Assembly: GCA_963820555.1 (NCBI GenBank)
Contig: CAWGAT010000047.1
Span: 33,982-97,981, forward strand
DNA from: Candidatus Bathyarchaeota archaeon
GTDB lineage: Archaea; Thermoproteota; Bathyarchaeia; TCS64
Reading direction: 5' to 3'
Length of the DNA: 64,000 bases
Both the position numbers and the translations under genes were made by a program. The notes beneath the pieces were generated by a model, which saw nothing but the letters and a program-made list of their open reading frames with translations, was not told the DNA's origin and did not search any database. Positions 3,126-22,708 of the stretch are shown in pieces. Position 1 is the stretch's first letter. Each line of letters starts with the position of its first letter.

Positions 3126-3217
3126 TATGGTCTGAGAGGCTTATCACAGCGACATATTTAAGAATATTGATATGAGTACTCGTAAACCTTTTGAGACCAC
3201 CCGCCTCGGCTCAACCT

Positions 3218-4679: not shown

Positions 4680-4733
4680 CCCATATATCCCAGCGAGTCG
4701 AAGTCTACGCGATGGCGGCTCCCGACTTCAATA

Positions 4734-7281
4734 ATGGACGAGGGCGAGGAGGAGATAAGGCCGAAGGGGCGTCTGGCCCCCGAGAACCTGCCCACGAGCT
4801 ACCTCCTCAGCGCGGGCTACGACGGCGCGGAGCAGAAGGCGTACCTCCGCCTCTACGAGCCCGTGAGCCAGCAGGTCTACCTCTGGTACGACAACACGAG
4901 CCACCTCCCCTACTGCATAAGCAGGGAGCCCATCACGGAGCTGGAGAAGAACCAGCGCCTCCTCCGCCACGAGGGCTACTTCTTCATGGAGGAGGTCAAG
5001 AAACACGACCCCCTCGCAGACAAGGAGATCAAGGTCACAAAGGTCGTCGCCAAGGACCCCCTCAGCATCGGCGGAGGCAGGGGCCAGCCCATCAGGAGCA
5101 TCATCGGGGACAGCTGGGAGAGCCGAATCAGGTACTACCAGTGCTACATCTACGACCGCGAACTCATCACCGGGATGCCCTACAGGGTGGAGAACGGCAA
5201 CCTCGTCGACGCCGGCTACACCCTCGACGCGGAGACGGAGGCGAAGATCGACGCCATCCTGGAGAAGATCGAGCCCGAGTTCAGGGGCAACATGAAGGAG
5301 TGGACCCGCCTCCTCCAGTGCCCCGTCCCCAAGCTGCGGCGCGTCGCCGTCGACATCGAGGTCCGCCCAAGCGTCCAGAACAGGCTCCCCAACGCCGACG
5401 AGGCGACAGGAGCCCATAACCGCCGTCGGATTCTCAGCCAGCGACGGCTTGCGCAGGATAATCGTCCTCAACGACACCGGCCACGATGTACCGACACCCG
5501 GTCATCCTCGGCGCGGAGGTTAAGGTCTACACCGACGAGCGCGACATAATCAGGGACACCTTCAAGGTCCTAGACGAGTACCCCGTCGTCCTCACCTTCA
5601 ACGGTGACGACTTCGACTTCCGATTCCTACGCAACAGGGCGAAGAACCTCGGCATCCCCGACTCCGAGAACCCCATAGTCATGGGGCGCCGCTTCGCCTT
5701 CCTCAGAAACGGCGTCCACCTCGACCTCTACAAATTCTTCATGAACAGGAGCATACAGGGCTACGCCTTCGGCAACCGATACAGGGAGAACACCCTCAAC
5801 GAGATATCCAAGAGCCTCACTCAACCATGGAGAAGCTCGCAATCGGCGACATCATGGCGGCGAACATGCAGGACCTCGCCCAGTACTGCCTCAACGACTC
5901 CGACCTCACCTACCAGCTCACAGCCTTCAACCACGACCTCGCCATGAACCTCATAGTCCTCCTCACCCGCATCAGCAAGATGATCATGGAGGACGTCACC
6001 CGTAACGGCGTCAGCAGGTGGATACTCTCCCTCATGGAGTGGGAACACAGGCACCGGGGCTGGCTCATCCCCAACACGCAGGACATCCTCGACGTGAAGG
6101 GGCAGACCAGCACCACCAGCATCATCAAGGGGAAGAAGTACCAGGGCGCCATAGTCAGGGACCCGAAGCCCGGCGCCCACTTCGGCGTCATCGTCTGCGA
6201 CTTCGCCAGCCTCTACCCCAGCGCTATCAGGAACTGGAACCTAAGCTACGACACCATCCTCTGCAACCATCCCGAGTGCAGGGATAACCTTGTCCCCGGG
6301 ACCCCCCACTGGGTCTGCAAGAAGAACCGCGGCATGGCGAGCCTCATCATTGGAAGCCTTCGCGACCTCAGGGTCCAGTGGTACAAGCCCCGAAGCAGAG
6401 ACAAAGCCCTAAGCGTCGAGGAGCGCCAGTACTACGACGTCGTCACCCAGGCCCTCAAGGTCTTCCTGAACGCCAGCTATGGGGTCTTCGGCTCCGAGAG
6501 CTTTCCCCTCTACTGCCCCCCGCTGGCGGAGAGCACAGCAGCCGTCGGCCGCTACGCCATGACCAAGGCCGTCGATAAAAGCCAGCAACTAGGCATAGAG
6601 GTCATCTACGGCGACACGGACTCCGTCTTCCTCGAGAAGCCGTCGAAGGAGCAGATTGACGGCCTCGTTAACTGGGCCGACGCCGAGCTCGGCATCGACC
6701 TTGACGTCGACAAGCAGTACCGCTACGCCATATTCAGCAGCCGGAAGAAGAACTACCTCGGCGTCTACCCCGACGGCAAGCTCGACATAAAGGGGCTGAC
6801 GGGGAAGAAGCGGCACATCCCCCCCATCCTCAAGGACGCCTTCGTCAAACTCACCACCATCCTCAGCAACGTCGATGGGCCCGAGGAGTTCCCCGACGCC
6901 AAGGAGGAAATCAGGAACCTCGTCACCACCATCAACCACCGCCTCAAGAACCGCGAATTCGCCATAGAGGAGGTCGCCTTCAGCATGATGCTCGGCAAGG
7001 GCCTCGCAGGCTACGACACCACGCCCCAGCACGTCAAGGCGGGCAGGATGCTCGAGGAGCAGGGATACGAGCTCAAGGAGGGGGACATAATCAGCTACGT
7101 CGTCACAAAGGACGGCGTCAAGCCCGTCCAGATAGCGGGGAAGAAGGACGTCGACATAAACAAGATGGAGGAGTACCTCGAGGGCACATTCGAGCAGGTC
7201 CTCGACGCCCTCGACATGAGCTTCGACGAACTCGTCGGGCGCCCACGCCAGACGGGACTCGGCGCATTCTTCACACGCTAG
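4734..7281 (+). CDS. polB: family B DNA polymerase (archaeal PolB) split into three overlapping-frame pieces by frameshifts
   Basis: Piece 1 (4734..5549) has Exo I (VAVDIEV). Piece 2 (5486..5947) has Exo II (LTFNGDDFDFRFL). Piece 3 (5827..7281) has the polymerase motifs including YGDTDS. The pieces overlap in different frames, so this is indels rather than an intein or a natural split. At least two +1 shifts lie between 5400 and 5500 and one near 5825. Confidence 0.8.
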
Positions 7282-7811
7282 AGCCCCGAGAGGAGGCGGC
7301 GCGCCTTCTCCATCTCCTCCGGCTTCTTCGCCACCTCCCCCTTCTCATTGGCGGTTATCAGCGCCTCCCCAGCGTACACCAGCCCGAGGTACTTGAAGCT
7401 CATCTTCAGGCTGTCGACAAGCGGCCCGCAGGCGCTCGGCCCCTCCTCGGAGGGGGCGATCAGGTAGGCCTTCTTCCCCTCGAGGCGGCGGTTGGCGACG
7501 TAGGGGCGGAGGCGATCGATGAGGAGCTTCATCTTGGCGGTGGGGCCGTACCAGTAGATCGGGGTGCCGAGGATGATGACGTCGGCGGCGTCTATCTTCC
7601 TGTAGATTTCGGGCATGTCGTCCTTGAGTACGCAGACCTTCTCCCCGGCCTTGCAGGCGCGGCAGTCGACGCATGGCTTAATCTCGTAGTCGTAGAGGTA
7701 GAGCTTCTCCCCCTCGTGCCCGTGCTTCGTCGCCTCACCGAGGGCGGCGTCGACGAGCAGTTCCGTGTTCCCCATCCGGCGGGGGCTCCCGATTAATGCT
7801 AGTATCTTCAT
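7278..7811 (-). CDS. flavodoxin-like NAD(P)H-dependent FMN reductase / iron-sulfur flavoprotein
   Basis: MKILALIGSPRRMGNTE ... CVDCRAC ... VIILGTPIYWYG is the NADPH-dependent FMN reductase family fold. The start was taken at the internal Met 34 of the ORF-track product (7811..7809). Confidence 0.7.
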   Translation of the reverse strand: MKILALIGSPRRMGNTELLVDAALGEATKHGHEGEKLYLYDYEIKPCVDCRACKAGEKVCVLKDDMPEIYRKIDAADVIILGTPIYWYGPTAKMKLLIDRLRPYVANRRLEGKKAYLIAPSEEGPSACGPLVDSLKMSFKYLGLVYAGEALITANEKGEVAKKPEEMEKARRLLSGL

Positions 7812-7924
7812 TAAGCAGACTCTCGCCCTCAGCTCCTTTATCCCTATCCCCCGGGACCAGTAAAAATTACAACTGGCTGGGAGAAGACTATAATATTGGG
7901 GCCACAGCATCCTCTTCGGTCAAT

Positions 7925-9232
7925 ATGACCGGTTTCGTGGACATAGCCAAGATACTTGGCGGAAAGCATGACGAGGAGCAGGTCCAGATCCGCGGCTGGC
8001 TCTACAACAGCCGGAGCAGCGGTGGCCTGGTCTTCCTCCACATACGCGACGGCACAGGTGTACTGCAGTGCACCGTGAACAAGAAGAACGTCGACGAAGC
8101 CACCTTCAATAATCTCGAGGGGCTCACGATGGAGTCCACACTCGAGATTGGGGGAAAGGTCCGCGTGGACCAGCGCGCCCCGGGTGGCTACGAGCTCTCC
8201 GTCAATAACCTCGGCACAGTCTACGAGGCTCAGCCAGACTTCCCTATAACGAAGAAGGAGCACGGCCTCGAGTTCCTACTAGACAACAGGCACCTACAGG
8301 TCCGGGACCCAAAGCTGCAGAGCATCTTCAAGATCAAAGCCGAGTTCCTCAAGGCAGCGAGGACGTGGTTCGGAGAGAACGGTTACACGGAGACCCAGAG
8401 CCCCAGCTTCACAAGCGCGGCCTGCGAGGGCGGCTCAACCCTCTTCGAGGTCAAGTACTTCGACAAGAAGAACGTCTACCTGAGCCAGAGCTGGCAGCTC
8501 TACGCGGAGGCGATGATAAGCAGCCTCGGCAAGATATACACGATCGCGCCGAGCTTCAGGGCGGAGCCCAGCAGGACGCGCCGCCACGTGACCGAGTTCT
8601 GGCACATGGAGGTCGAGGAGCCCTGGACGGACCACGACGGCATCATGAAGGTGGGGGACGCGCTGGTCACTCACATCGCCCACCACATCGCGGAGACGAT
8701 GCCGAAGGAGATACAGGCCGTGGGCAGGGACCCTAAGGACCTGCTGAAGATCGAGACTCCGTTCCCGAGGATCAAGTACGACGAGGCGGTGGAGATTCTG
8801 CAGAAGGACGGCGTCGAGATGCTCTGGGGGGACGACTTCGGCTGGCAGCAGGAGGCCCCACTGACGCAGCACTTCGAATTACCCTTCTGGGTCACGGGGT
8901 TCCCCACGGGGATCAAGCCCTTCTATCACATGCCCGACCCCGCGAGGCCTGACACTACGAAGTCGGGCGACCTACTCGCCCCCGAGGGCTACGGCGAGAT
9001 CATCGGAGGCGGGCAGCGCGTACACGACTACAACCAGCTTCTCCAGCGGGTGCTTGACGACAACCTCAACCCGGAGGACTATAAGTGGTACATGGAGCTG
9101 CGGAAGTGGGGCACGGTGCCGCACAGCGGCTTCGGCCTAGGCGTGGAGCGTGTACTTACGTGGATGCTTAAGCTTGAGCACATCAGGGACACCATCCCCT
9201 TCCCCAGGGACATGCGTAGGGTCTACCCGTAA
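7925..9232 (+). CDS. asnS: asparaginyl-tRNA synthetase, archaeal type (class IIb)
   Basis: Several motifs are near-identical to Pyrococcus-type AsnRS: FRAEPSRTRRHVTEFWHMEVE, PFPRIKYDEAVEILQ, APEGYGEIIGGGQR, GTVPHSGFGLGVERVLTW. Appears intact. Start at Met 44 of the ORF-track product. Confidence 0.85.
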   Translation: MTGFVDIAKILGGKHDEEQVQIRGWLYNSRSSGGLVFLHIRDGTGVLQCTVNKKNVDEATFNNLEGLTMESTLEIGGKVRVDQRAPGGYELSVNNLGTVYEAQPDFPITKKEHGLEFLLDNRHLQVRDPKLQSIFKIKAEFLKAARTWFGENGYTETQSPSFTSAACEGGSTLFEVKYFDKKNVYLSQSWQLYAEAMISSLGKIYTIAPSFRAEPSRTRRHVTEFWHMEVEEPWTDHDGIMKVGDALVTHIAHHIAETMPKEIQAVGRDPKDLLKIETPFPRIKYDEAVEILQKDGVEMLWGDDFGWQQEAPLTQHFELPFWVTGFPTGIKPFYHMPDPARPDTTKSGDLLAPEGYGEIIGGGQRVHDYNQLLQRVLDDNLNPEDYKWYMELRKWGTVPHSGFGLGVERVLTWMLKLEHIRDTIPFPRDMRRVYP

Positions 9233-9298
9233 CCCCGCTCTTCTTTTCTAAAGAATCACTTTTTCAGTGCGGCGACGAAGCCGTCGACCTTCGCGTCA

Positions 9299-9775
9299 CC
9301 CACCCCGCCTTCATACAGACACGCGACCAGAAAGTATGCCGCCGCGGCGTTGAGCCTCAGCGAACTCGCCCACTTCGGCCCCGAGTACGCCAAGCAGATA
9401 CAGGCCAACTCACACGCGCTCGCAGGGGCGCTCGACGAGCAGGGCTTCAAGGTTGTGGGGAAGGAGAAGGGCTACACGAAGACGCATCAGGTGATAGTCA
9501 ATGTCCGTGACCTCGGGCCGCGTGCCATCGAGAAGAGGTTCAACGAGTCGAACATCCTCCTCCCCACGACTGTCCTCTGGGACGACCCCCCGAATTGCAG
9601 GGGCGGCCTCAGGATATCGGTGCAGGAGGCTACCCGCCAAGGGATGACTGAGGGGGAGATGAAGCAGGTGACGGCGTTGATCAGGAGGTCGGCAGACGGG
9701 GAGGACGCTGAGTCGATGAGGGGCGAGGTCGAGAGGTTCGTCGCGCCCTTCCGGAAGCTAAAGTACTGCTTCTGA
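9299..9775 (+). pseudogene. glyA: 3' remnant of serine hydroxymethyltransferase (glyA); the N-terminal ~290 codons are missing
   Basis: KYAAAALSLSELAHFGPEYAKQIQANSHALAGAL ... THQVIVNVRDLG ... GGLRISVQEATRQGMTEGEMKQVTALI matches only the C-terminal third of SHMT. asnS ends at 9232, so nothing upstream can be the N-terminal part. An AT-rich insert and an IS follow immediately. Confidence 0.7.
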
Positions 9776-9860: not shown

Positions 9861-10208
9861 ATGAGCCCGGATTTTATTTTAGGTTTTATCGGTAGTGTAA
9901 CAGGAATTTTAAGTCTATTAATACTCATTTTTAACACCTATAGAGAAAAACCAAAAATTAAAATAATTGACGAAATGATGATACTTCAATATAAAAAAGG
10001 AAAATTTAATTCTGATCTAGAATATAAAATTAGTAATACCGGGAATAAAGATACAACTATATACAGAGTAATAGTCTCTTTCGGCCCTGATGTAGAGGTA
10101 TTTGATCAGGAACTTGTATCTTTACTAGCTCATTCATTGATTAATGGACCCAGTAATACTAAAAGTAATAATTTATGCTCTGTGGAATTAGTCGATAATT
10201 TTACATAA
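9861..10208 (+). CDS. hypothetical small membrane protein, low-GC and foreign-looking
   Basis: 115 aa with one N-terminal TM helix (ILGFIGSVTGILSLLILIF). It sits in a ~35% GC segment (9780-10230) inside a ~60% GC genome. Confidence 0.35.
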   Translation: MSPDFILGFIGSVTGILSLLILIFNTYREKPKIKIIDEMMILQYKKGKFNSDLEYKISNTGNKDTTIYRVIVSFGPDVEVFDQELVSLLAHSLINGPSNTKSNNLCSVELVDNFT

Positions 10209-10209
10209 A

Positions 10210-11247
10210 TAAACGCCCCTTCTAGGAGCCGATGGACTGGAAAGAGACCGACGAGAGGCTCATCAGACGAGGAGAGCTCATCCTGGACCCCTCCCTCATG
10301 AAAAACCACGTAAAAGAACTAAAAACCATGAACAGGCACAGAATAGGACGTCCCTACACCCTATCAAACAGCATCATCAAGCTCCTCACAGCAGTCCGCT
10401 ACCTCTACGGCCTCCCCTACCGCCAACTCGAAGGATTCACCAGAGCACTACACAGACTCGTACCTGACATGCCCACCGGCGACTACTCCGGCCTCCGCAA
10501 ACGGATCCTCGGCCAGCCCGTCGACCCCTACAAGGACCTCAAAGACGCCACCGAGCCCGTAACCATCGCCGTCGACTCCACCGGCATCAGCGTCCACAGG
10601 GCCGGAGGCTGGATAGAGAGGAAGCACGGGAAGAAGAGGAGGTACATCAAGCTCCACTTCGCCGTAAACACGGAGACCCACGAGGTGGTCGCTATGGAGG
10701 TCAGCACCGACGACGTTCACGACGTGAAGGCCCTCCCAGCGCTCGTGGAGGAGTCGGGGAGGAATGTCCGGGTCTCTGGGCTCCTCGGGGATGGTGCCTA
10801 CGACTCGTCGAAGGTCTACGCTCTGCTGGAGGGTCGGGGGATCGAGGCGGTTGTTAAGCCGAAGAGGAACGGTAGGTCTGATCGGGGTCATCCGGGCAGG
10901 CGTCGGGCGGTGGAGCTGGTGAGGAGTTTAGGGTATGATGGTTGGGCTGAGAGGGTGGGGTACGGGCGTAGGTGGGCTGTTGAGACGGCTTACTCGACGT
11001 TTAAGCGGTTGTTTGGGGAGCACAGCCTCGCCAGGAGCTTTGAGGGCATTGCGAGGGAGCTGGCTGGGAAGGTTTCGTTGTACAATATGCTGGTGAACCT
11101 GTGAGAGGTGGGGGCGACGTGGGCTTGTGTAGAGAGGGCTCTAATGGATTTTAACTAAATCCACAGAGCAGTTCTACGCACTTCTCAACGGAAGTTTACC
11201 TCATTACTGGCAAAAGGTTCGCTTCGAGTAGAAGAAGGGCGCTTTCG
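10210..11247 (+). mobile_element. IS5-family insertion sequence (approximate ends)
   Basis: Transposase ORF 10232..11104. Candidate imperfect inverted repeats are aaacgccccttctagg at ~10210-10225 and gaagggcgctttcgg at ~11232-11247. The ends are uncertain. Confidence 0.4.
10232..11104 (+). CDS. IS5-family DDE transposase
   Basis: 290 aa. Catalytic D in IAVDSTGISV, second D in LLGDGAYDS, E in WAVETAYSTFKRLFGE. Spacing and motifs match IS5/ISH-type transposases. Confidence 0.75.
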   Translation: MDWKETDERLIRRGELILDPSLMKNHVKELKTMNRHRIGRPYTLSNSIIKLLTAVRYLYGLPYRQLEGFTRALHRLVPDMPTGDYSGLRKRILGQPVDPYKDLKDATEPVTIAVDSTGISVHRAGGWIERKHGKKRRYIKLHFAVNTETHEVVAMEVSTDDVHDVKALPALVEESGRNVRVSGLLGDGAYDSSKVYALLEGRGIEAVVKPKRNGRSDRGHPGRRRAVELVRSLGYDGWAERVGYGRRWAVETAYSTFKRLFGEHSLARSFEGIARELAGKVSLYNMLVNL

Positions 11248-11980: not shown

Positions 11981-12766
11981 ATGGAGTATAAACAAATCAA
12001 GGTAAGCAAAGATGAACAAGTGGGCGTCATCACAATCGATGCCCTACCGCAGAACGACTTCAGCAAGAGGATGATCGTGGAGATACTCGACTGCCTCGAC
12101 AACTTCGAGAGGGACGACGAGGTCCGGGCGGTCATGCTCAAGAGCACGGGGCCGAACTTCTCCCAGGGCGCGGGCGTCGAGGACCTCGACAAGGACATAG
12201 TGGAGGGGGTGACCGACACCCCGTTCTCGGAGCTGGGTGGCAGGATCGTCGAGAGGATCGACTGCTACCCGAAGCCGACCCTCGTCGCGGCCCGGGGCAT
12301 CTGCTTCGGAGGCTCCACCGCCGTCTTCAGCGCCTTCGACATCAGGATAGTCGGGGAGACCTTCAACATCCACGACGGCGACATCTACTACGGGATCGTC
12401 GGGTCCTGGGGAATGTGCAGCCTCCGGCTGCCGATTTGGATTGGTAGGAACAAGGTGCTGGACTACATGTTCCTCAACGAGGGCTTCACGGGGAGGCAGG
12501 CATACGAGCTTGGGCTGGTCAGCAAGGTCGTGCCGGACGACCAGGTCGACGAGATTGGCCTCGCCATCGCTAAGAAGATGTCCACCGCCGCGCCCGTCGC
12601 CGCGAGGTACTTCAAGGAGTGCGTCCGAAACACACTATACTCCCACCTCGCGGAGGCCCGTGCGAAGGAACTTGAGGCGTCGAAAATAGTCTGGGCCACC
12701 GAGGATGCCAAGGAGGGCCTGGCGAACGTTATCAGGGGAAAGAAGACCGTCTTCAAGGGCAGATGA
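11981..12766 (+). CDS. enoyl-CoA hydratase/isomerase (crotonase) family protein
   Basis: 261 aa with the crotonase fold: VGVITIDALPQNDFS ... oxyanion-hole region SQGAGVEDL ... CFGGSTAVFSAFDIRIV. Confidence 0.75.
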   Translation: MEYKQIKVSKDEQVGVITIDALPQNDFSKRMIVEILDCLDNFERDDEVRAVMLKSTGPNFSQGAGVEDLDKDIVEGVTDTPFSELGGRIVERIDCYPKPTLVAARGICFGGSTAVFSAFDIRIVGETFNIHDGDIYYGIVGSWGMCSLRLPIWIGRNKVLDYMFLNEGFTGRQAYELGLVSKVVPDDQVDEIGLAIAKKMSTAAPVAARYFKECVRNTLYSHLAEARAKELEASKIVWATEDAKEGLANVIRGKKTVFKGR

Positions 12767-13030
12767 ACTAACCACCTCTAGGAGGCGGGCTTCCTGACTC
12801 GCTGAAGCGACTAGCCCAACCCGCTGAGTCGCGCATTCAACTATTTAGAAGTAAATCAGCCCCCACCCACCTCTCCATCGAACAAAGGTTGAATGTTAAG
12901 CGCGTGCTTGACTCACTAATGTTTCTACACAAATAATGGAGACAATGGCTGGAATATAGGCGAGGCACCCTGTGTTCGACAGATACCTCGCTAGATTAGG
13001 GAACTACAATCGTAAAGTATATTAACAAAA

Positions 13031-13046
13031 GTTTACATATGTAAAC
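13031..13046. promoter_or_regulatory. perfect 16-bp palindrome GTTTACATATGTAAAC (plus a third GTTTAT half-site at 13051-13056) just upstream of the wHTH-nucleotidyltransferase gene
   Basis: Read directly from the sequence. It sits ~22-37 bp upstream of the GTG start at 13068, in the BRE/TATA zone. Probable autoregulatory operator for the wHTH domain. Confidence 0.55.
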
Positions 13047-13067
13047 TAAAGTTTATGGTGTTTTGGT

Positions 13068-13655
13068 GTGCTTCTGCATAAATATCTGGAGAAACTCCTG
13101 GGATCCAAGGCCAAAGTGAAGATACTAAGAGCCTTACAACGCCACAGAGGCAAAGAGTTCACCGTGCGTGAGCTCGCAGATTACATTAATATCTCCCACA
13201 CAGGCGTCCATAAAGCCCTCATTGACTTATATGACATGAACGTGATCACCCTCAAATCTGTCGGAAAATCCCACACGGTGACCCTAAACGAGGAAAGCCA
13301 TACGAGGGACCTGTTAGAATACCTATTCAAATTCGAGGAGGAGACCCTAAGAGCGCTCCAGAGTCTTATAAATAATTACCTCTGTAGCCAACCTAATATT
13401 AGTTCAGCCGCAATATTCGGAAGCGTTGCTCGCGGAGAAGAGGAACCTCGAAGCGACATCGACCTCCTGATACTATCAAATGACAGGGAAAAAGCGGAAG
13501 TGGCAGTCTCAGAGCTTCAAGTTGAGGTCTCCAGAAAGTTCGGGAACCCCCTAACTACATACATCATAACTAGAGAGGAGCTGGAAGGGAGGAAAATACC
13601 TTTAATGAAAGAGATACAGGAGCAACACATCATGATCTGCGGCGAAACTCTGTAG
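13068..13655 (+). CDS. fusion of an N-terminal winged HTH and a minimal nucleotidyltransferase (MNT, Pol-beta-like) domain
   Basis: N-terminus: AKVKILRALQRHRGKEFTVRELADYINISHTGVHKALIDL (wHTH). C-terminus: IFGSVARGEEEPRSDIDLLIL (the GS-x-ARG ... DxD nucleotidyltransferase signature). Sits in an AT-rich island. No cognate HEPN partner ORF was found. Confidence 0.7.
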   Translation: MLLHKYLEKLLGSKAKVKILRALQRHRGKEFTVRELADYINISHTGVHKALIDLYDMNVITLKSVGKSHTVTLNEESHTRDLLEYLFKFEEETLRALQSLINNYLCSQPNISSAAIFGSVARGEEEPRSDIDLLILSNDREKAEVAVSELQVEVSRKFGNPLTTYIITREELEGRKIPLMKEIQEQHIMICGETL

Positions 13656-13949
13656 TAGACGTAATGTCAATAAAAACTAGGAAAGTGGAGCATGGACTAT
13701 ATACTAAGTCTGTTGACGTCTACATAGTATTTATATAGTTGTTATATGCCAACGCCGGAATTTGTTAATAATTAAGGTTCTTCGGACTTCGTCAGATTCG
13801 TTATAATGTTAAAACTTGGTGAGTGTCATAACTACATGGATCGGATTTCTTAGGGCTAAACGGGAAGACCCCAGTTGAGGCTTGCAGAATCGAGGTCAAG
13901 GGAGATAACAAGTGGAAGATATTAATTCAAAACGCAAAGAAGACCAATT

Positions 13950-14573
13950 TTATATATGTATAAGTCCTTTCTCTTTCGCTATTTGAAGTAGTTCATCTAT
14001 ATCCTTTATGGGAGCCATTAAGGCAAATTCTCCCCAATGCCATAAGCCCTTTTCATGTGTTTGGGTTCTATACCCAAACCGCAACTCCTTTCTACCATCA
14101 TCCCATAGTAATTCTTCTATCAAAATGATTTTATCGATAACATTTGTCTGTTGTCCCCAAACGACTTTATTTATTTTGAAGTGAACCCGATCTTTTCTAG
14201 ACCTACCCTTTGGGACAATCCCACCTTCGAGCTTGAGACGAAGCGTTTTACCTGCTCTATCCTTTATCGGTATCTCTCGAACCCTATCCTCTTCAGAAAA
14301 ATAACCATTAATCATATCATATTCTATAATACTACCATTTCGGTTAACATTTGCTTTTCAATCAACCGAAAGGTAACAGCCCAACAAAACAGTCTGATCA
14401 ACCGAAGAGGTAACAGAACCCTCATATCTAGGTTCATCCCGAAGAATTTTGACATGAAGATAAATCCGACGAAGACTTGACAGAACCGCCCATTACCTTC
14501 GCAACTTCGTTGACTATCTCATCGATAGAACTTGATCCACCCAGATTCCGTAATGCCTGAAGGACGGGATTCA
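13950..14573 (-). pseudogene. decayed gene with an Mrr_N-like N-terminal wHTH fragment (47 aa) and a 121 aa C-terminal ORF, separated by a stop and a frameshift
   Basis: The minus strand 14573..14433 encodes MNPVLQALRNLGGSSSIDEIVNEVAKVMGG, which resembles the Mrr N-terminal DNA-binding domain. After a stop and frame changes the reading continues into the 13950..14315 ORF (MINGYFSEEDRVREIPIKDRAGKTLRL ...). No intact catalytic domain was recognised. Confidence 0.35.
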
Positions 14574-14774
14574 TGAATTTATCGTAAGAAGGAAGACTCG
14601 GCGTCGTATCCCCACCTATACTATATTGTTGGTTTCAATAGGATATTTAAAATAATTTTAATTCAATATGCTTAACGGTTCAAATTAAAAATGCTTTATT
14701 TTGAAGAAGACCCTTTTAAAAAGTGTGACTTTTCACATAAAATATTTTTCTCTTAAAAATTATATCATATGAAA

Positions 14775-15587
14775 TTACTCATAAATAATATCACCATCAC
14801 GCGTAGTTATAGTCATTTTAATCAACCCTTGATAAACTAATTCATTTAGAGAATCTTTTACATCCATTTCTTGATATGACTTTTTTGGATTGCTAGACTT
14901 AAGTATATTTGTCCAGTCATTAATAGTTCCACTAAATTGAGTTTCATCTTTTTTATTTAATATAGTATTTCTCAAACTTGGATTATAAATATTTTTCAAT
15001 GTTTTAAAACAATATAAAAGAACTAGGATCGAAGTGATCCAAATTGCCATATGATAATAAGGCGTTTGTCTATCAAGAATAACTATTTTATTATCCCAAA
15101 AAATGAAATATTTTACAAAATCTAAGTATAGTCCCATAGAACCATAAAACGATATAGATAAAACACCGCTACTAACTGCCACTCGGAATAAAATATGTTT
15201 CCACCAACTAAAAACGTCTCTCTTCTTTATTGCATAATAAGAACATAACAATATGGGAGCAAGGCTAATAATTAATGCAGTAATAGCTTCAATATATTTT
15301 TCTAAAATAATTAGAATGATAAACTGTATTAACAAACCAGCAGAAACCGAAGCTAAATTCGAAACGATTTCTTTTCGCTTCATTGAGATCTCAAAAAATG
15401 GTTTTAATAATTCTTCATCACATTCTCTACAAAGTCTTCGTTTTGGAAAACTTCTCATCGTTGTAACAAATTTTTTAAGAGGAGCAACCGCAGGTTCGAT
15501 AAAAAGCTCGTCAGTTCCCCATGCAAAAAAACTAAAAAATAGACCTAAAACTCCAGTTACAATACCTGAAAAAAGGAACGCGTCCAT
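14775..15587 (-). CDS. hypothetical polytopic membrane protein with a cytoplasmic C-terminal domain
   Basis: 270 aa, ~5 predicted TM helices, low GC (~33%). No recognisable motifs. Confidence 0.4.
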   Translation of the reverse strand: MDAFLFSGIVTGVLGLFFSFFAWGTDELFIEPAVAPLKKFVTTMRSFPKRRLCRECDEELLKPFFEISMKRKEIVSNLASVSAGLLIQFIILIILEKYIEAITALIISLAPILLCSYYAIKKRDVFSWWKHILFRVAVSSGVLSISFYGSMGLYLDFVKYFIFWDNKIVILDRQTPYYHMAIWITSILVLLYCFKTLKNIYNPSLRNTILNKKDETQFSGTINDWTNILKSSNPKKSYQEMDVKDSLNELVYQGLIKMTITTRDGDIIYE

Positions 15588-15621
15588 TATGTTCTATAGA
15601 TTTAACTAGAAATAATATTTA

Positions 15622-15840
15622 TCATTTTTCTTTTTTATCTTTCTTGAACAGGTGCCAATTGAAATCCTTCAAATATTGATCCCAAACTACATCGGAAACT
15701 ATGAGAAGACCGGGAATGATACCTATGCCAACAGCAATATTATTCGTAATACTAACTGCCTGTATACCTAATGAAATTATGCCAAAACCAAATAAAAGTA
15801 AAATAAGACCGATCACCCACTTTCCCGGTTCTTTGTGCAA
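15622..15840 (-). CDS. hypothetical small 2-TM membrane protein
   Basis: 72 aa with two hydrophobic helices and a KKDKKEK tail. Co-directional with and upstream of 14775..15587, likely the same operon. Confidence 0.35.
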   Translation of the reverse strand: MHKEPGKWVIGLILLLFGFGIISLGIQAVSITNNIAVGIGIIPGLLIVSDVVWDQYLKDFNWHLFKKDKKEK

Positions 15841-16211
15841 TATTATCCCCTCGACCTTAGGGAACTTATAGGAAAAATATAACGGAGCTTTAATATATAT
15901 TTTATTCTTAGTATGTGATAATTTTCAAAAAAATTCACCTTTTCTCGAATGGTGGTAATAAAACGTGTTAACATTGAAACGCGTGTTCCAAAGTAATTTG
16001 GGGAGAATAACTTAAAAAAGGAAAAAATTTAGATCGAGCTGGTTGAAGAGATAGCTTTATATAATTGTTGTTATGGATGCACCCACTTTTTTGGTGGGTC
16101 TAGTGCCGCACATTGTTTCTATTTCTAGTGAGGAAAACGATGGGCTCAGCATCGGCGTCACTAGGCGGTTCCTCGGGCGCCGAGCTGATCCCCAGGTCAA
16201 ATGGGTGAAAC

Positions 16212-16541
16212 GTGATGGAGCTCGAAGCAACGATAATGGGCCACAGGGTCACCTTCCGAAGCTGGACGTACGGGAAGAAACAGGATGCTATGCGAAGGGC
16301 GACCAGTTGGAGGAAGGAGCCCGACGGGGGCTTGGTCCCGGACGTTGACCCGTGGCTCCTCAACGACCTGATGCTGGCGGCGACGGTCGCTGAGTGGGAC
16401 CTAAAGGGGCCGGATGGTAGCCCCCTCCACGTGTCCGTCGAGTCCATTCGGGGGATTGAGCCGCCGGAGCTCGTTGAGCAGATGATCGAGTTCACCCAGA
16501 GGCTTAACGGTGTCACTCGGGAGGAGAGAAAAAAATCATGA
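16212..16541 (+). CDS. hypothetical virus-like protein
   Basis: 109 aa. First ORF after the GC jump and co-directional with the tail-like genes. No confident motif. Confidence 0.3.
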   Translation: MMELEATIMGHRVTFRSWTYGKKQDAMRRATSWRKEPDGGLVPDVDPWLLNDLMLAATVAEWDLKGPDGSPLHVSVESIRGIEPPELVEQMIEFTQRLNGVTREERKKS

Positions 16542-16753
16542 TGGCTGTGAAGCGCGGTAAGCCTGAGCCACTTCTGGAGGATGTTTCGCTCTGCGCTCGC
16601 TTGGGCTGGACCCTAGACCAACTGAGGCGTCAGCCTGCAAGGTTCGTTGAGGTTCTTAGGGTCTACCTCGGGGCACTGGACGACGTGCAGAGCCGTGAGA
16701 ACAGGCGCCTGACCGAGGAATTCGAAGCGAAGATGCGGAGGCTTCACCCTTGA
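16538..16753 (+). CDS. hypothetical virus-like protein
   Basis: 71 aa. Its start overlaps the stop of the previous ORF (ATGA), and its own stop overlaps the start of the next ORF. Confidence 0.3.
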   Translation: MMAVKRGKPEPLLEDVSLCARLGWTLDQLRRQPARFVEVLRVYLGALDDVQSRENRRLTEEFEAKMRRLHP

Positions 16754-17130
16754 TGATAACTAAGGCAATAAGATTTGGGGACCTGGGATTAGAGCTTAGG
16801 TTACTCCCAACCAGAGTCGGTGAGGCCTCAAAACAATCCCTAAGCCTCGACCGCATGGTCTTAATAGCGAAGTCCTACTGCCCCATCGACACCGGAGCCC
16901 TGATGGCCTCGATCCGAGCAGAAATGCGCGGACCCCTAGAAACGGCCCTGATCGCGGGCGGAGGAGGATACGTTAACCCCAGAACCCTAAAACCTGTAGA
17001 TTACGCGAAAAACGTCCACGACGGTACGAGCCGCATACCACCCCGACCCTTTCTCCTCCAGGCAATCCTCGCCGAGCGGCTCAGGCTCGCACAGGAGATC
17101 ATTGAACGGAGTGGAGGGCTGATGTCGTAA
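16750..17130 (+). CDS. HK97 gp10-like tail-completion / head-tail joining protein
   Basis: 126 aa. SYCPIDTGALMASIRAEM matches the conserved V-P-x-D-T-G-x-L-(R/K)-x-S-I motif of the HK97-gp10 family. Confidence 0.5.
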   Translation: MMITKAIRFGDLGLELRLLPTRVGEASKQSLSLDRMVLIAKSYCPIDTGALMASIRAEMRGPLETALIAGGGGYVNPRTLKPVDYAKNVHDGTSRIPPRPFLLQAILAERLRLAQEIIERSGGLMS

Positions 17131-17744
17131 TGGAGACCAGCCTAGTCTACACGGTCTCTGTCACCGGCCTAGACCAGGTTAAAGCACAGGCGGATTCAGC
17201 CGCGAAGAGTGCAGACCTCGCCTCGAATAGTGTCAGGGGCCTTCAGGGAGAGGGCCTCAGGACCATGCCCCTGGTGATGAACGCCCTCCAGACGGTGAAC
17301 TCTCTCCACAGTAGCGTGGAGAACGCCACGAAGGCGCTTCAGACGATGAACCCGGAGGCGATGATCTACGCCCTCCTAAGCATGATCAGCGTCGCCACCA
17401 ACCTGATGCAAATCATGAGACTCCTGAGGGAGTCCACAGCCACCGCCGCCGCTGCCCAAGCAGTCCTCGACACCCTGATCGGAGCCTGGTGGCTGATACC
17501 CCTCGCAATTACTGCTGGAGTGATGGTTGCGTCGAGTGTCCGCTCTATGCAGACAGGGGGACTCATCCATGAGACTGGGACGTATCTCCTCCACAGGGGG
17601 GAGTACGTCGTACCCGCCAACAACACGGCCAACTACGGCCCCTTCTACGTCTCCTTCACGGGCGGCCCTCAGGGCCTCGACGTGGAGGGGTTCCTGAGAG
17701 AGCTTGGCCCGAGCCTCACGAGGCGGATCAGGAGGACTGCCTAG
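17130..17744 (+). CDS. coiled-coil plus 2-TM protein, tape-measure-like or internal virion protein
   Basis: 204 aa. N-terminal heptad-rich region, two hydrophobic helices (IYALLSMISVATNLMQI and WWLIPLAITAGVMVASSV), Ala-rich linker. Confidence 0.3.
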   Translation: METSLVYTVSVTGLDQVKAQADSAAKSADLASNSVRGLQGEGLRTMPLVMNALQTVNSLHSSVENATKALQTMNPEAMIYALLSMISVATNLMQIMRLLRESTATAAAAQAVLDTLIGAWWLIPLAITAGVMVASSVRSMQTGGLIHETGTYLLHRGEYVVPANNTANYGPFYVSFTGGPQGLDVEGFLRELGPSLTRRIRRTA

Positions 17745-19000
17745 ATGACGCTAGCCCCCTCGCCCACTTGGGCTCAATGCCACATCGAGGTTCACGAGGC
17801 GCCCGGTTGGCTCGACGACTGCTTCAGGTCGACTTTATGGACCAAGTTCCGGAGCGCTGACTCCGAGAGCTTCGCCAACGCAAACGACATAGCAGGGGAC
17901 TACGCAACAATGGCGGTCACTGAGGGCGACGTAGTCAACGGCTGCGGGTGGCAGAAGGACATCATTGGCCTCGCCCTAAACACGTCGAACTACCCGAGCC
18001 TACGAGTCCGCCTCAGGGGTAGGGGGACTTCACCTCAATATCAGATTGAGGTGGAGATGAGTGACAGCACAATCGATGCGTCAGGTTGGTGCGACGCCCC
18101 AACGGGGTTCGAGGCGAGGACCCTTAACCTCACCCCCGGCAAGACCGTCAAATACGTAAGACTCTACGCCCGATTCATCGACACCCCTCGCCTCAGCCCA
18201 GATCGACTACGACTACGCCGTCATTCAGGCCCAGCCGCCACTGATCCCATACGAACACCTGAGGTCGACGTGGAGCTCCAGCACACCATCGCTAGCTCCG
18301 GCTTCAGGGTCAGATGCTGGCACGACATCCTCCAGGGCGTCACCGCCCGCAGCTATACGATTCGAGGAGGGCTCAGGCATCAAGGCCTACGACCTGAGCG
18401 GCAACCGAGGGCCACGGAACCCTCGTCAACTCGCCCACATGGGTCGCAGGTGCAGCCACGGCGGAGGTCTCCAGTTCGTCGGCTCCTCTTCGCAGAGAGT
18501 CGACACAGGGTACCTCCCCACAATCCCAGCGTCAGGGGCCCTGAGCATCGCCTCTGGGTCAAGGGCATCGAGTGGGGCTACAGGCGTCATCGTCGGCTCA
18601 GGGAAGGTGCCTGGCGGGTCGTTCAACAGGCTCCAACTCAACTTCCAGTCAACGGATAAGGTCAGGCATCTACGTCAAGGACGACGCTGGCAACATCCGG
18701 CAGTACACATCGACAAGACGATCTGCGATGACACTTGGCACCACGTCGTCAGCCGTCGTGGACCCCGCCAACGACGTCGTCACCCTCTACGTGGACGGCA
18801 TATTCGACGGGCAGGCATCGGGAGCCCTCGGGGCAATCACCCTCGATGCCCTACGACTTCACATTGGGCTGCCTCCATAACGAGGCTGGCTACACGCAGC
18901 TCATGCGACATGCTTCCTCGACGAGGTGGCATTCTACGAGAAGGCTCTGACCTACGATGAGGTCCTGACATCTTCAGGAGGGATCCACCCTCGGGGATAA
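17745..19000 (+). pseudogene. frameshifted large tail-fibre or receptor-binding-like protein with a LamG/concanavalin-like domain
   Basis: Three overlapping frames (17745..18659, 18439..18960, 18572..18880) together encode DDTWHHVV ... VTLYVDGIFDGQASGA. The W-H-H-V ... L-Y-V-D-G pattern is typical of LamG domains. Confidence 0.35.
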
Positions 19001-19075
19001 GCGGGGCGTCCTGTGGCGCATGGGTGATGATCTACCTGGCCGCGGAGCCGGAGAGCCTGGTCTACAAGCTGATCA

Positions 19076-20500
19076 GTGGAAGGGTGCTCGAACGCGTACA
19101 TGGGCGGCGACCCCGATGGGCCCTGGATTGAGCTCAGCGGCGAGGACCAGAGCGAGATCGTCCACGAGAGGATCTGGAGCCGGGAGTTCACGAGCCCGAC
19201 CCAGATCAGCACCGTAGCGGGGTACGTCGTGGACGATGCCGTGGACGAGCTCTACCGGGACATCGACGCCACGAACAGGACGATAGTCAACAACTTCAGG
19301 AACGAGAACGCCTGGAGCGTCCTCGGCAAGCTGGCGGAGAGTGCATCCTTCGCAACCGGCGAGAGCGGCGCTCACTTCTTCGTGGACCCCGGCGGCTGCT
19401 TCCGGTTCCGGAAGTACGGCGCCTTCGCCTGCCCACACCATCATCTCGGACGGCAGCGACGGCTACCCGCCGAACATCATGGACATCGAGGCCACGGAGA
19501 GCATCAAGGGCTCGCCCAGCCTCGTCAACGACGTGAAGGTGGTGATCTTCGAGGAGGAGAACATACCTAGGGATCGAGGACGGTTGGACGGAGTGCGCCG
19601 GATGGCTGGAGCAGCCCGGACCCAACGGACTCGGCTATCCCCTAGAGCGAGGCAGTTGACAAGGTAAGGGGACTACGCCTCCGTCAAGTTCCAGACGACG
19701 AACCCGGGCCCAGTCTACAGGATGCGCCTCTCCTTCTCGGAGCAGGACCTAACCGGATTCGACTCGGTCAAATTCAGCCTCAAGTACGGGTCAGGGCTCA
19801 GCATCGACTCCTTCACGTTCCAGATAATGAAGGGGAGGCTTCGGAGCCGGCGACTACTATGAGATCACAGGCGATGTATCTCCCCCGGGAGCCGACGCCT
19901 GGCATGAGATAACGATCAACCTCGCCGATATGAGCAGGATCGGCAACCCAGGCAACATCGTTAACAACCTCGAGCTGAAGGCCGTACCACGTCCACCGAG
20001 ATCGGGATCGGCGGCTTCCTCATCGACCATCTAAGATTCATCCGCAGCGAGAAGTCGGGAAGCGCCTCAGACTCGGCGAGCCAGCTCACCTACGGGAAGC
20101 GGAGCCTCACCATCGTCGACAAGGGCATAACCAGCACAACCTACGCAGGCTACGTCGCCTCGAACATCGTCGCCAACCGAAAGAACCCAGTGGCCACACT
20201 CGGAGTAACGGTGCCTGGACGCGGTCAGCCCGGCTATAGACCACCCCAGAGCGTCACCGTGACGAGCCTCAAGGACGGGATAAGCTCAAGGGCCTTCCAG
20301 ATCGTGAAGGCTAGGCACAGGATACACAGCCGGGGAGGGCTACACCTGCGAACTTGACCTCGTCGCCGCCAAGACCGCGGGAAGCCCCCCGCTTACTCGG
20401 AGCTGGTCTGCCCGAGCCTCAACGATCTCCCAACTCTCCTCGGCGAGTGGAGGAGGCGGCTGCAGGGGGAGGCACTGAACAGCCTCAGGAGTGAGTGGAT
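19076..20500 (+). pseudogene. frameshifted tail-fibre or carbohydrate-binding-module-like protein(s)
   Basis: My own translation finds long open stretches in alternating frames, for example DYASVKFQTTNPGPVYRMRLSFSEQDLTGFDSVKFSLKYGSGLSIDSFTFQI and GDYYEITGDVSPPGADAWHEITINLADMSRIGNPGN. This is the beta-sandwich CBM-like composition seen in virus fibres. Confidence 0.3.
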
Positions 20501-20916
20501 ATGAAGAACGATGAAAAAGCATCCGAGGGATCCGAAGCGGATCCCCTACGGAACGAACGAAGGTAGTCGAGGGCCTTGAGAAGGGGGACCTCGTCGTCGT
20601 GAGGTGGACGGACGCGAGCGACCGGAAGGCGCCCCTGGAGGAGCACATCGGGGACCCGAGCATCTACTGCAAGGACTGGGGGATATACCTCGGCGTCACG
20701 GGCGCACGAGCGACGTTCATACTCATCGGGAAGGACATCGTCGAGGTCCACAACGAGTGGGGGGCGACCAGGATACCGCTGGAGCTCGTCGAGGAGGTGA
20801 TACGGTGTCCTACCCGAGAACAAGTCGTGAGAAGAATTCGGGAGATTCAGGTCCTCGGCGGAAGGGTGCGCCTCAGGAAGAGGAGGAGGGAGGTAAAGGT
20901 TGTTAGAGTGGCTTAA
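20501..20916 (+). CDS. hypothetical protein (frameshifted N-terminus)
   Basis: ATG at 20501, then a frame change into the 105 aa ORF 20599..20916 (RWTDASDRKAPLEEHIGDPSIYCKDWGIY ...). Confidence 0.25.
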
Positions 20917-20984
20917 GGAGAAGCTAACGAAGACGATGGTTCAGGCGGCGCCCGGAGGAGCGCCGCATAAGGGTAGTCGAGGAC

Positions 20985-21160
20985 GTGCCCAGCGACAGAT
21001 TCGTCCTACTAGTCGCACTCATGGTCATATTCTTCGCGGGTCTCATAGCCCTCGAGGTGGCGCACATGGTCGTCTTCGGCGCAGTGGAACGAGGCCGTCT
21101 TCAACGGCGTCATGCTGATCGTCGGCACCATCGTCGGCGCCGTCTGGGGGAGGAGCGAGG
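20985..21160 (+). CDS. small 2-TM membrane protein (holin-like topology), frameshifted
   Basis: FVLLVALMVIFFAGLIALEVAHMVVFGAVE, then after a frame change AVFNGVMLIVGTIVGAVWG. Two hydrophobic helices in ~60 aa. Confidence 0.25.
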
Positions 21161-21161
21161 C

Positions 21162-21850
21162 ATGATCAGCGCGAGGGTCAGGCCCCGCCGCTACGACTCC
21201 GAGCGGGGCTGCTACGTCTACGACGTCAGCATTCAGGACGAAGACCAAGATCACGGAGCGCACCGCTAAGGTGGCGGAGGCCTTCGGCCTAGGCATCGAC
21301 GAGGAGAGTGAGCAGTGCTCCTCAGGGGCTTCGAGCTCAGGCTGGTGGAGGGGGACATCGTCTACATAACCGGCGAGTCCGGATCCGGCAAGTCGGTGCT
21401 GCTCAGGGCCCTGCAGCGAGGACCTGGGAGACCGGGCCGTGGACATCGCCGAGGTCACGGTGGACGCCTCAAGCCCATCGTGGACACCGTCGGCTCCAGC
21501 TTCCCGGAGGCGCTGGGGCTCCTCAGCCGGGTGGGCCTCAACGACGCCTACCTGTTCCTCCGCAGGTACCACGAGCTCAGCGACGGGCAGAAGTACCGGT
21601 ACCGGATCGCCAGGATGGTCGACTCCGGCAAAAGGTTCTGGCTCGCCGACGAGTTCTGCATCGACCCTCGACAGCACCACGGCCAAAGTCGTCGCCTACA
21701 ACATACAGAAGCAGGCGAGCCACAGCGGAGCCACCCTGGTCGTGGCGACGAGCCACACCGACCTCGAGGAGGACCTGGCCCCCTCCGCCCTCATCAGGAA
21801 GGGCTGGGGCGACGAGGTAAAGGTCGAGTACAGGGAGAACAGGGAGGCAC
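21162..21850 (+). CDS. stand-alone ABC-type ATPase (Walker A, ABC signature, Walker B, H-loop), at least 3 frameshifts
   Basis: Walker A is ITGESGSGKSVLLRAL. The ABC signature LSDGQKYRYRIARMV is a variant of LSGGQ. Walker B is RFWLADEF. The D-loop/H-loop VVATSH appears in the next frame. Pieces are spread over ORFs 21315..21869 and 21439..22605. Confidence 0.5.
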
Positions 21851-21939
21851 CGGAGTGCACGGCCGATAAGAGGCATAACCATACCGAGAGGGCACGAAGG
21901 AGGACTACGCCCGGCTCAGCTAGCCTCCACTACAGGGAC

Positions 21940-22708
21940 AGCCGCCTACCCGTCCCGATGAAGATCTACGCCGCGCGCCGCGGCGACGAGCTTGTCGGCG
22001 TCATCGCCTACAGCTACCCCGGAGTCAACGCCCAGGGAGGAGGCTCGCCGTCGGCTAAACCGCCCCACCCTCGAGGAACTCAACAGCGACTGGGCCGTCA
22101 TAAGCCGCGTCATCGTCCACCCCAAGTACCGAACAACCGGCCTCGGCGCCCGACTCCTCCGCGAAACGCTGCCCCTAGTTGGGCGCCGCCACGTGGAGCT
22201 CATCGCGGTGATGGCGGAGTACAACCCCTTCGCCGAGCGAGCCGGCATGACCCTCATCCACCAATCAACCCCCGATCCCACCGTCACCGCCGCCATCAAA
22301 GCCCTCCGAACACTCGGCTTCGACCCCTTAACCCTAACAAGCCAAGCCCAGAACAAACGAACACTGGAATCCCTTTCCCCCGAGGACCTAGAGGAGGTCC
22401 GCCGGATCCTCCTAAGCGTACACAGCGTCTACTACAAGCGCATCGGCAGCACCGACAGCGCCTACACCCGCCGCCCAGAGATGAAAGCCTGGCTCAGCAA
22501 ACAGGGACCAGCCCGTCTCTCAGTGAGCCTCAAGGCCCTCGCCGTGCTCGGCCAATCAAAGGCCTACCTCTATTGGAGCAGCCAAAATCAAATCGAGGAG
22601 GGTGAAATTCCCAGCCACAGCTGTAAAAATATTTTTTTTCGCAAATACCCTCCTACTGGGAAATTCGAGTACCCCACTGGGAATTTGCCGGCCCAAAACG
22701 GGGGGTGA
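21940..22708 (+). CDS. GNAT-family N-acetyltransferase domain protein (frameshifted)
   Basis: ELVGVIAYSYPG (beta-strand before motif A), then in the next frame VISRVIVHPKYRTTGLGARLLRE, the canonical GNAT motif A (R/Q-x-x-G-x-G/A). Confidence 0.45.

Follow-up and report, generated by a model that had tools for sequence, protein, structure and literature searches.

We analysed a 64,000-nucleotide stretch of DNA from a Candidatus Bathyarchaeota archaeon (contig CAWGAT010000047.1; the window hereafter, to which all unprefixed positions refer). It holds an AT-rich tract at 12780-16130, directly beside the remnant of a tailed-virus provirus. An earlier note, made from the sequence alone, had described this tract as a single acquired island, partly decayed and with a possible role in defence or abortive infection. 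Our results indicated instead that the tract is a composite of at least four fragments that differ in GC content and meet at insertion sequence (IS) ends and deletion junctions. We interpret it, with a probability of roughly 0.7, as a mosaic graveyard of laterally acquired, lower-GC DNA that was made and eroded mainly by IS6 elements at a rearrangement hotspot of a Bathyarchaeia chromosome. Three units within it are intact: a gene that fuses a winged helix-turn-helix (wHTH) to a minimal nucleotidyltransferase (HTH-MNT), a gene for a protein of 121 amino acids (aa), and a cassette of two membrane protein genes (72 and 270 aa). The coordinates of all features are collected in Table 1.

The compositional anomaly of the tract is real, because its GC content of 36.6% lies ~21 points and ~7 standard deviations (sd) under the rest of the window, where all other 3351-bp segments have a mean of 57.8% (sd 3.0, minimum 49.4%; window overall, 56.6%). 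A strongly deviant AT-rich tract had thus been recognised correctly in the earlier note, and all of the open reading frames (ORFs) that it named exist. Its figures were overstated, with a GC content of ~33% and a deficit of 25-30 points against the flanks, where we computed 21 points. GC content is also uneven inside the tract, falling from 45.8% (12780-13655) through 39.2% (13656-14620) to 29.2% (14621-16060), and the cassette region itself has 29%. The GC content at third codon positions (GC3) varies likewise among the genes, with values of 0.55 for HTH-MNT, 0.33 for the 121 aa gene, 0.21 for the 270 aa gene, and 0.33 for the 72 aa gene, compared with 0.76-0.90 in host genes. The left GC step is located at ~12850-13000 and the right one at ~16090-16110. 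No direct or inverted repeats above chance were found to bound the whole tract, an Rfam scan of 12600-16400 returned no RNA family, and no integrase domain was present among the window ORFs scanned. The only tRNAs in the window are at 50470 and 61866, so there is no tRNA target at the tract.

An independent Logan assembly (run ERR10755944) yielded a 6137-bp contig that corresponds to window 12888-19031. It is 100% identical to the window over 12888-16279, and the right junction and all internal junctions therefore have two witnesses. On this contig the cassette (29% GC) and the tail genes of the provirus (60% GC) are contiguous, without a mismatch at the junction.

The internal joins of the tract are marked by remnants of IS6-family elements. 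The 3' stub of a transposase (13853-13963) matched residues 220-256 of the transposase at a comparison locus, L032 (73% identity, E 1.5e-12, tblastn), and the L032 transposase in turn matched Pfam DDE_Tnp_IS240 (7.5e-19). The stub and the 121 aa gene converge and overlap at their 3' ends, and L032 is arranged in the same way; the two loci share 80.8% nucleotide identity between window 14369-13857 and L032 108-615. About 100 bp upstream of the 121 aa gene, all close loci carry GGTTCTGT(N)TCGGTTGAT followed by a subterminal copy, and homology between loci begins exactly at the GG of this repeat (window 14420 = L022 4870; L032 66-68 = L033 812-814). Ends that start with GGTTCTGT were found at two tips in the window (14420 and 14487) as well as at L022, L032 (both ends, inverted), L033, and L004. 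At L032 the 53-bp end lies at 66 and its inverted copy at 2512. The terminal repeats show a GG tip and a cTGTt motif, the signature reported for IS6-family ends (PMC7986276).

In the window and at L032, the L004 group, L022, L039, and L021, the 121 aa gene is followed by a transposase or by what is left of its 3' end; in the first four of these, the gene sits between the transposase stop and the terminal repeat. Since transposase sequence and IS6 ends bracket it across loci, we regard the 121 aa gene as a passenger or accessory gene of an IS6-family element. As the transposase is not its sole gene, the element is a passenger-carrying variant of IS6, a family in which a review knows a single passenger-carrying member (PMC7986276). 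The copy at L032 66-2512 spans 2447 bp and contains, besides the 121 aa gene and an intact transposase of the IS240 type, a gene for a class I methyltransferase (187 aa) and an 82 aa ORF. Its flanks lack a matching 8-bp duplication, and it represents either one larger IS with passengers or two elements, one nested in the other.

The 121 aa family comprised 30 homologues of 88-174 aa, nearly all of them 120-134 aa long, with 49-83% identity. Comparison of the window gene with two homologues gave dN/dS values of 0.11-0.27, and by this measure the gene is intact and under purifying selection. The family is rare, with members in 4 of 185,579 species genomes (Promethearchaeota CR_4, a 'Thaumarchaeota' bin, a Bathyarchaeia bin and, as a partial match, a Chloroflexia bin) and on 19 JGI contigs; a search of IMG/VR with the family found no relative. 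At most of its loci the gene has a lower GC content than the flanks, and the neighbours beyond the IS parts are unrelated. The AlphaFold2 (AF2) model is confident (mean predicted local distance difference test score, pLDDT, 91.7) and beta-rich, with eight strands and a C-terminal helix. This fold had no significant Foldseek match in PDB or BFVD and none by profile against PDB sequences, and the protein matched no Pfam, NCBIfam, or PADLOC model. The protein would most likely act as a modulator of its IS6 element that binds nucleic acid or the transposase. Among single neighbourhoods, the homologue at L006 2149-4584 adjoins a Piwi/Argonaute operon, one case that may hint at a defence neighbourhood, and another homologue has AbiJ/AIPR-type genes in its vicinity.

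Upstream of the 121 aa gene, on the same strand, lies a short remnant of a different gene. Similarity to the DNA-binding domain Mrr_N ends at codon 30 of a 46 aa ORF, which is the IS tip at 14487; the ORF (14434-14574) then continues into the IS repeat, and the PD-(D/E)xK nuclease domain Mrr_cat is absent. Searching 72,556 plasmids with the stub by tblastn returned only two matches, both annotated as restriction endonucleases (2e-3 and 4e-2). With the similarity cut at the IS tip, it is probable that the insertion of an IS disrupted a gene of restriction type, of tentative identity, at this site. The earlier note had seen one decayed Mrr_N-like gene across 14573-13950. Its beginning (14574-14488) is indeed weakly Mrr_N-like, and the rest consists of IS ends and the intact 121 aa gene. 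We rejected a single broken Mrr gene at 14573-13950, as its three frames never rejoin and the 121 aa family is full length everywhere. The 121 aa ORF was likewise rejected as a decayed Mrr body, as it belongs to a conserved family of its own that has no match in Pfam, NCBIfam, or PADLOC.

The surroundings of the tract indicate that rearrangement was not confined to it. The flanking genes for enoyl-CoA hydratase (ECH) and asparaginyl-tRNA synthetase fall in protein clusters named Candidatus Bathyarchaeia. Contigs of Bathyarchaeia relatives with ~90% nucleotide identity are collinear with window 2355-9297; their next match, 9296-9775, covers no more than the final third of the serine hydroxymethyltransferase (SHMT) gene. 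Compared with these relatives, 1.3 kb has been deleted (the flavodoxin gene and the 5' two-thirds of SHMT), and synteny stops at the SHMT stop codon (9775), with nothing further matched in the window. From 9776 to ~22700 the sequence is a patchwork of an IS-cut AT-rich ORF, a wHTH gene, a displaced ECH gene, the AT-rich tract, and the virus remnant. The ECH gene (11981-12766) shares 90.7% identity with its counterparts in other Bathyarchaeia, though only inside its coding sequence, and both of its flanks differ, as if it had been relocated as a cassette. In eight relatives it stands between a DUF4382 gene and an aminotransferase gene; here it has other neighbours on both sides. Further left, a 995-bp IS (10176-11170) with 17-nt inverted repeats and a DDE_Tnp_1 transposase (10232-11104) truncates the 3' end of the AT-rich ORF (9861-10208); a target duplication was not obvious. 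This ORF resembles the 270 aa gene in composition (GC3 0.20), has one N-terminal membrane helix, and weakly matched PADLOC REase_II (4e-4).

The tract is absent at the syntenic sites of the ~90%-identical relatives, where the same genes at native GC content were not found either, and the predicted structures of its proteins do not suggest mundane transporters. The earlier claim of horizontal acquisition therefore stands, and the composition, the patchy gene families, and the internal IS remnants agree with it.

At the right edge, the virus-like block named in the earlier note was confirmed as the tail module of a provirus by PHROG matches (tail chaperone, Neck1, tape-measure) and by collinearity with IMG/VR UViG_3300033149_005121, which runs from window 16229 and from position 10009 of that contig. 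The head-side genes upstream of 10009 are absent in the window, including one with a weak match to the PHROG 'minor tail protein' family. As collinearity starts at this point and the head-side genes are gone, the right edge of the tract is the truncation point of a defective provirus. The provirus has also lost sequence internally, with ~3.7 kb of the related IMG/VR virus (L029 14410-18117) lacking a counterpart at 20990-21324. No viral relatives were found for its 126 aa neck-like protein. The Logan contig differs from the window at 116 provirus positions (19 of them single-base indels), which are concentrated at 17750-19000. The gene after the tape-measure-like ORF (at least 426 aa) is open in the Logan assembly and broken in the window; the divergence of 17750-19000 stems either from hypervariability of a tail or receptor-binding gene or from errors in the consensus. 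A 104 aa ORF (23001-23315; 45% GC) with a C-x2-C pair and no Pfam match separates the provirus remnant from the host genes, and the mosaic region may end there on the right.

Among the intact units, HTH-MNT matched Polbeta (7e-11) and NTP_transf_2 (5e-10) in Pfam, together with a weak MarR/ArsR-type HTH. In PADLOC it matched PDC-M05A over residues 6-175 of 195 (8.7e-22) and also the single-gene candidate PDC-S09; the match to NCBIfam MntA (6e-9) scored 35.7 bits, under the 60-bit cutoff. The catalytic motif GS...DxD is kept (G118-S119, D130-x-D132). The earlier note had described this fusion as lacking a HEPN partner, and the searches bear that out. No M05B was detected by PADLOC among the 71 window ORFs of at least 90 aa, and ORFs of the spacers beside the gene yielded no partner. 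A nearby HEPN-like small ORF, which the note had thought worth looking for, was not found either: 13656-13949 has no ORF of at least 25 aa, and neither its small ORFs nor any of its frames match HEPN or M05B models. In haloarchaeal plasmid homologues an overlapping 166 aa gene comes next, and tblastn of these 166 aa partners against the window gave no match. A single-protein query of IMG/VR, which detects close relatives only, found no close relative of HTH-MNT. By its domains and motifs, HTH-MNT is a nucleotidyltransferase of the PDC-M05A/MntA type and an orphan antitoxin-like gene without a neighbouring HEPN toxin. PDC-M05, a pair of a nucleotidyltransferase and a HEPN protein, is a candidate system with archaeal enrichment and an unconfirmed antiviral role (PMC12988326). 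The perfect palindrome in front of the gene is accompanied by a third half-site (AGTTTA, 13050-13055) and an A/T-rich TATA-like box (~13015-13026); it is a candidate operator that the wHTH of HTH-MNT itself most likely binds, which would imply autoregulation.

The two membrane protein genes had been reported as an operon of orphans. Both ORFs are real and adjacent, and they are not orphans, given 18 homologues and a conserved pairing. A word-indexed search with the 270 aa protein returned only the protein itself; exhaustive HMMER searches found the 18 distant homologues (209-313 aa, 23-30% identity), and the family shares the motifs CxxC (residues 53-56), DVFxWW, PSLR, and ELVYQ. A single-protein query of IMG/VR, of the same reach as for HTH-MNT, gave no close relative, and neither cassette protein matched a PADLOC model. 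The AF2 model of the 270 aa protein (pLDDT 86.5) shows five long helices (2-20, 56-94, 98-121, 132-150, 177-201), three of them strongly hydrophobic, and hydropathy agrees. A C-terminal domain (~203-270) follows, with three helices and a wing (205-269). Foldseek aligned it with the winged helices of Fur, PadR, RosR, and histone H1 (rmsd, root-mean-square deviation, 1.4-2.2 Å over ~65 residues, probability 0.99). From the charge distribution, the CxxC loop and the winged helix would both be cytoplasmic.

At three of the four other loci examined (L015, L024, L028), the 270 aa homologue is immediately preceded by a small ORF for a two-helix membrane protein. The ORFs at L024 and L028 are homologous to the 72 aa protein (BLASTP E 3e-6 and 2e-5), and the one at L015 shows 24% alignment identity only. 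At the fourth locus (L025/L026), fragments of the same IS6-type element flank the 270 aa homologue. Given the pairing at other loci and this copy amid IS6 fragments, we consider the 72/270 aa pair a conserved, mobile, uncharacterised module. On the predicted structures we favour, tentatively, a membrane-tethered winged-helix DNA-binding regulator with a small membrane partner; an effector of the abortive-infection type is a less likely possibility. Two neighbourhoods are noted as observations: one 270 aa homologue has an MNT gene 3 kb off, and at L025 2566-3878 another lies near NYN-nuclease and DUF4760 genes, a single case that is a possible hint of a defence neighbourhood.

The junctions described above are observed, and the order of events that we infer from them is a reconstruction. 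Low-GC DNA would have arrived first, with the 72/270 aa cassette and an Mrr-type restriction gene. An IS6-family element would then have inserted at codon 30 of the Mrr-like gene. A second IS6-family element, bearing the 121 aa gene between transposase and terminal repeat, would have landed 67 bp inside the first. A deletion may then have taken ~200 transposase codons and the remaining Mrr-like gene, and joined a separate 46% GC segment with HTH-MNT; a similar loss would have stripped the head module from the neighbouring provirus. The three intact units are probably expressed.

Several points weigh against this interpretation. The window holds neither a complete IS6 copy nor a target-site duplication, and the order of events has to be read from partial elements; a missing duplication is common after IS6 cointegrate or deletion events (PMC7986276). 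The 'caaa' motif of the family consensus was not seen in the terminal repeats. The methyltransferase and the 82 aa ORF between the transposase and the far repeat of L032 make the limits of the element family less certain. A single witness covers the left junction (12767-12888), since the second assembly begins at 12888. The stub matches Pfam Mrr_N over residues 1-29 with E 0.026 and 15.1 bits, against a cutoff of 29.5. The Foldseek E values for the winged helix of the 270 aa protein are weak (0.2-1), and the functions proposed for the three intact units come from domain and fold similarity alone.

Table 1 Features of the AT-rich tract and its edges (window positions).
Feature	Position	Strand	Basis
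Left transition and HTH-MNT promoter region	12767..13067		GC drops 0.57 -> 0.31; ECH homology to relatives ends 12764-12769
Perfect 18-bp palindrome AGTTTACATATGTAAACT, candidate operator	13030..13047		21 bp upstream of HTH-MNT start
HTH-MNT, intact, 195 aa, wHTH + minimal nucleotidyltransferase	13068..13655	+	Pfam, PADLOC, motifs
Non-coding spacer, 38% GC, ending at deletion junction with transposase stub	13656..13852		No HEPN remnant detected
Transposase 3' stub (IS6/IS240 DDE), last 37 codons	13853..13963	+	tblastn to L032 transposase
Partial IS6-family element: 121 aa gene + transposase stub	14420-13853		Terminal repeat, stub, L032 homology
121 aa gene, intact	13950..14315	-	30 homologues; dN/dS; AF2 model
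IS6-type terminal repeat GGTTCTGTTACCTCTTCGGTTGAT, then subterminal copy CTGTTACCTTTCGGTTGAT	14361..14420	-	Homology tip = 14420
Solo 67-bp end (GGTTCTGTCAAGTCTTCGTCGGAT...) of second related IS6-family element	14421..14487	-	Resembles end at L025 5232
Mrr_N-like 29-codon 5' stub	14488..14574	-	Pfam, tblastn, inverted-repeat tip at codon 30
270 aa multi-pass membrane protein	14775..15587	-	18 homologues, alignment, AF2, Foldseek, hydropathy
72 aa two-helix membrane protein with basic tail, first cassette gene	15622..15840	-	Homologous upstream ORFs elsewhere
Cassette promoter region (AT-rich) and virus-remnant junction	15841..16211		GC step ~16090-16110
5'-truncated, internally deleted tail module of tailed archaeal virus	16212..22417	+	PHROG matches; IMG/VR collinearity

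Other readings were weighed against the mosaic. The 121 aa gene has repeatedly been kept intact, under apparent purifying selection, after the transposase decayed, a pattern that would suggest an independent function, for instance in transposition control or addiction, or one that benefits the host. It is conceivable, though on balance rather unlikely, that the 121 aa protein is a new IS-encoded accessory factor with its own function and that the 72/270 aa pair is a DNA-binding module of an undescribed kind, tethered to the membrane and exchanged among archaea on segments flanked by IS6.

We consider it improbable that the tract is a functional, acquired defence or abortive-infection island, in which HTH-MNT would serve as sensor or antitoxin, the cassette would kill or arrest the cell, and the 121 aa protein would be an extra component. 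The matches of HTH-MNT to the PDC-M05 A subunit and to PDC-S09 speak for such an island, as does the enrichment of PDC-M05 in archaea (PMC12988326), although the antiviral role of PDC-M05 is itself unconfirmed in the same study and no HEPN or M05B gene was found among the window ORFs of at least 90 aa or the small spacer ORFs beside HTH-MNT. The restriction-enzyme stub inside the tract, the adjoining provirus remnant, the Piwi/Argonaute operon and the AbiJ/AIPR-type genes beside one 121 aa homologue each, and the MNT gene near one 270 aa homologue also point towards defence. However, the 121, 270, and 72 aa proteins match no PADLOC model, and the gene order of the tract recurs in none of the other loci examined. 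The pieces, moreover, did not arrive together as a unit, because they differ in GC content and their joins fall at IS ends or deletion junctions. A role in defence or abortive infection is thus unproven, its signals being the orphan A subunit of an unvalidated candidate, a 29-codon stub, and one Argonaute neighbour.

Less probable still is that the tract is moron cargo that came with the adjacent provirus. It abuts the tail module directly, and low-GC accessory genes are frequent at provirus ends; between the two assemblies the tract is invariant and the provirus polymorphic, which would be compatible also with a recent joint arrival. Yet the tract occupies the place of the head and major-tail genes, where the related virus contig has unrelated genes, and the IMG/VR searches reported above found no relative of the 121 aa family and, with single-protein queries that detect close relatives only, no close relative of the 270 aa protein or HTH-MNT. 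The internal IS6 structure, in addition, accounts for the junctions. The least credible reading, an assembly or binning artefact in which the low-GC DNA of another organism was joined to a Bathyarchaeia contig, draws on the extreme composition jump, the singly witnessed left junction, and frameshifts in housekeeping genes of the window, but is opposed by the ERR10755944 assembly, identical across the right junction, and by an internal GC gradient and IS-bounded sub-structure that are typical of real mosaics.

Elsewhere in the window, the gene for a family B DNA polymerase (4722-7281; 854 aa in relatives) is frameshifted near 5389-5405, and its second part is 78% identical, with indels. A thiamine-pyrophosphate enzyme gene (23357-25088) is split into ORFs of 179 aa and 399 aa. 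Both genes may be pseudogenes or may reflect assembly indels. Region 123-2354 is not collinear with relatives and carries minus-strand ORFs at 232-999 and 1045-2235, the former with a methyltransferase-like domain (PADLOC mad2, 6e-22); this region is possibly a further insertion. Pooled PADLOC searches of the 71 window ORFs also returned PbeA (2.9e-56), IetA/TRIP13-type ATPases, Cas3-type helicases, a type IV methyl-directed restriction enzyme model (4.4e-14), and a homing endonuclease model (5.8e-19). Most of these matches are probably housekeeping homologues.

Taken by itself, the tract is an ordinary low-GC variable region of mobile-element debris beside a dead provirus. Its analysis corrects an annotation trap, in which an intact IS passenger gene was mistaken for the body of a broken restriction gene, and it indicates that IS6-family elements of uncultured archaea (Bathyarchaeia, Promethearchaeota) bear a conserved accessory gene. 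Two unannotated small families are flagged as well, the beta-rich 121 aa protein and the putative membrane-tethered winged-helix cassette. Should an antiviral role be borne out for the orphan PDC-M05A-like protein or for the cassette, the thin catalogue of archaeal defence genes would grow.

When compared with known systems, the tract resembles low-GC islands and the variable regions of defective prophages in its odd composition, its absence in relatives, its mobility remnants, and the degraded provirus alongside. It differs from them in being composite rather than one insertion, and in that an integrase, a tRNA target, and flanking direct repeats were not found. The stub recalls type IV restriction endonucleases of the Mrr type, as its first 29 residues show a sub-threshold resemblance to the Mrr_N winged helix, whereas the PD-(D/E)xK catalytic domain of those enzymes is missing. 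With HEPN-MNT type VII toxin-antitoxin systems and PDC-M05, HTH-MNT shares the minimal nucleotidyltransferase motif GS...DxD, an N-terminal wHTH that falls within the full-length M05A match, and a promoter palindrome that would fit autoregulation. Unlike those systems, it has no HEPN gene adjacent or among the window ORFs, and it scores under the MntA cutoff.

For the cassette, the closest analogy in architecture is with ToxR/ToxS and CadC, membrane-anchored winged-helix regulators (N-terminal, OmpR type) with a small membrane partner. The 270 aa protein would similarly tether a winged helix to the membrane, with the 72 aa protein co-encoded; the analogy is one of architecture only, with no sequence relationship. 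In contrast to those regulators, the predicted winged helix of the 270 aa protein is C-terminal and of the Fur/PadR type, its anchor is polytopic (3-5 helices), and it has a CxxC loop.

The IS remnants are most like the IS6 family (IS26/IS257/IS240). They share with it a DDE transposase with the IS240 domain, repeats that begin with GG and contain cTGT(t/g), and the clustering, nesting, and deletions left behind that are described for the family (PMC7986276). They depart from it in the conserved 121 aa gene, which lies in opposite orientation between the transposase stop and the repeat and has its nearest parallel in the rare passenger 'transporter IS' (ISDsp3). Their ends, moreover, are ~53 bp long with a subterminal repeat, compared with the usual 15-20 bp. 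Truncated as the copy in our window is, elements of this kind occur in Bathyarchaeia, Promethearchaeota, and 'Thaumarchaeota' bins, beyond the archaeal clades covered in the review of the family (PMC7986276).

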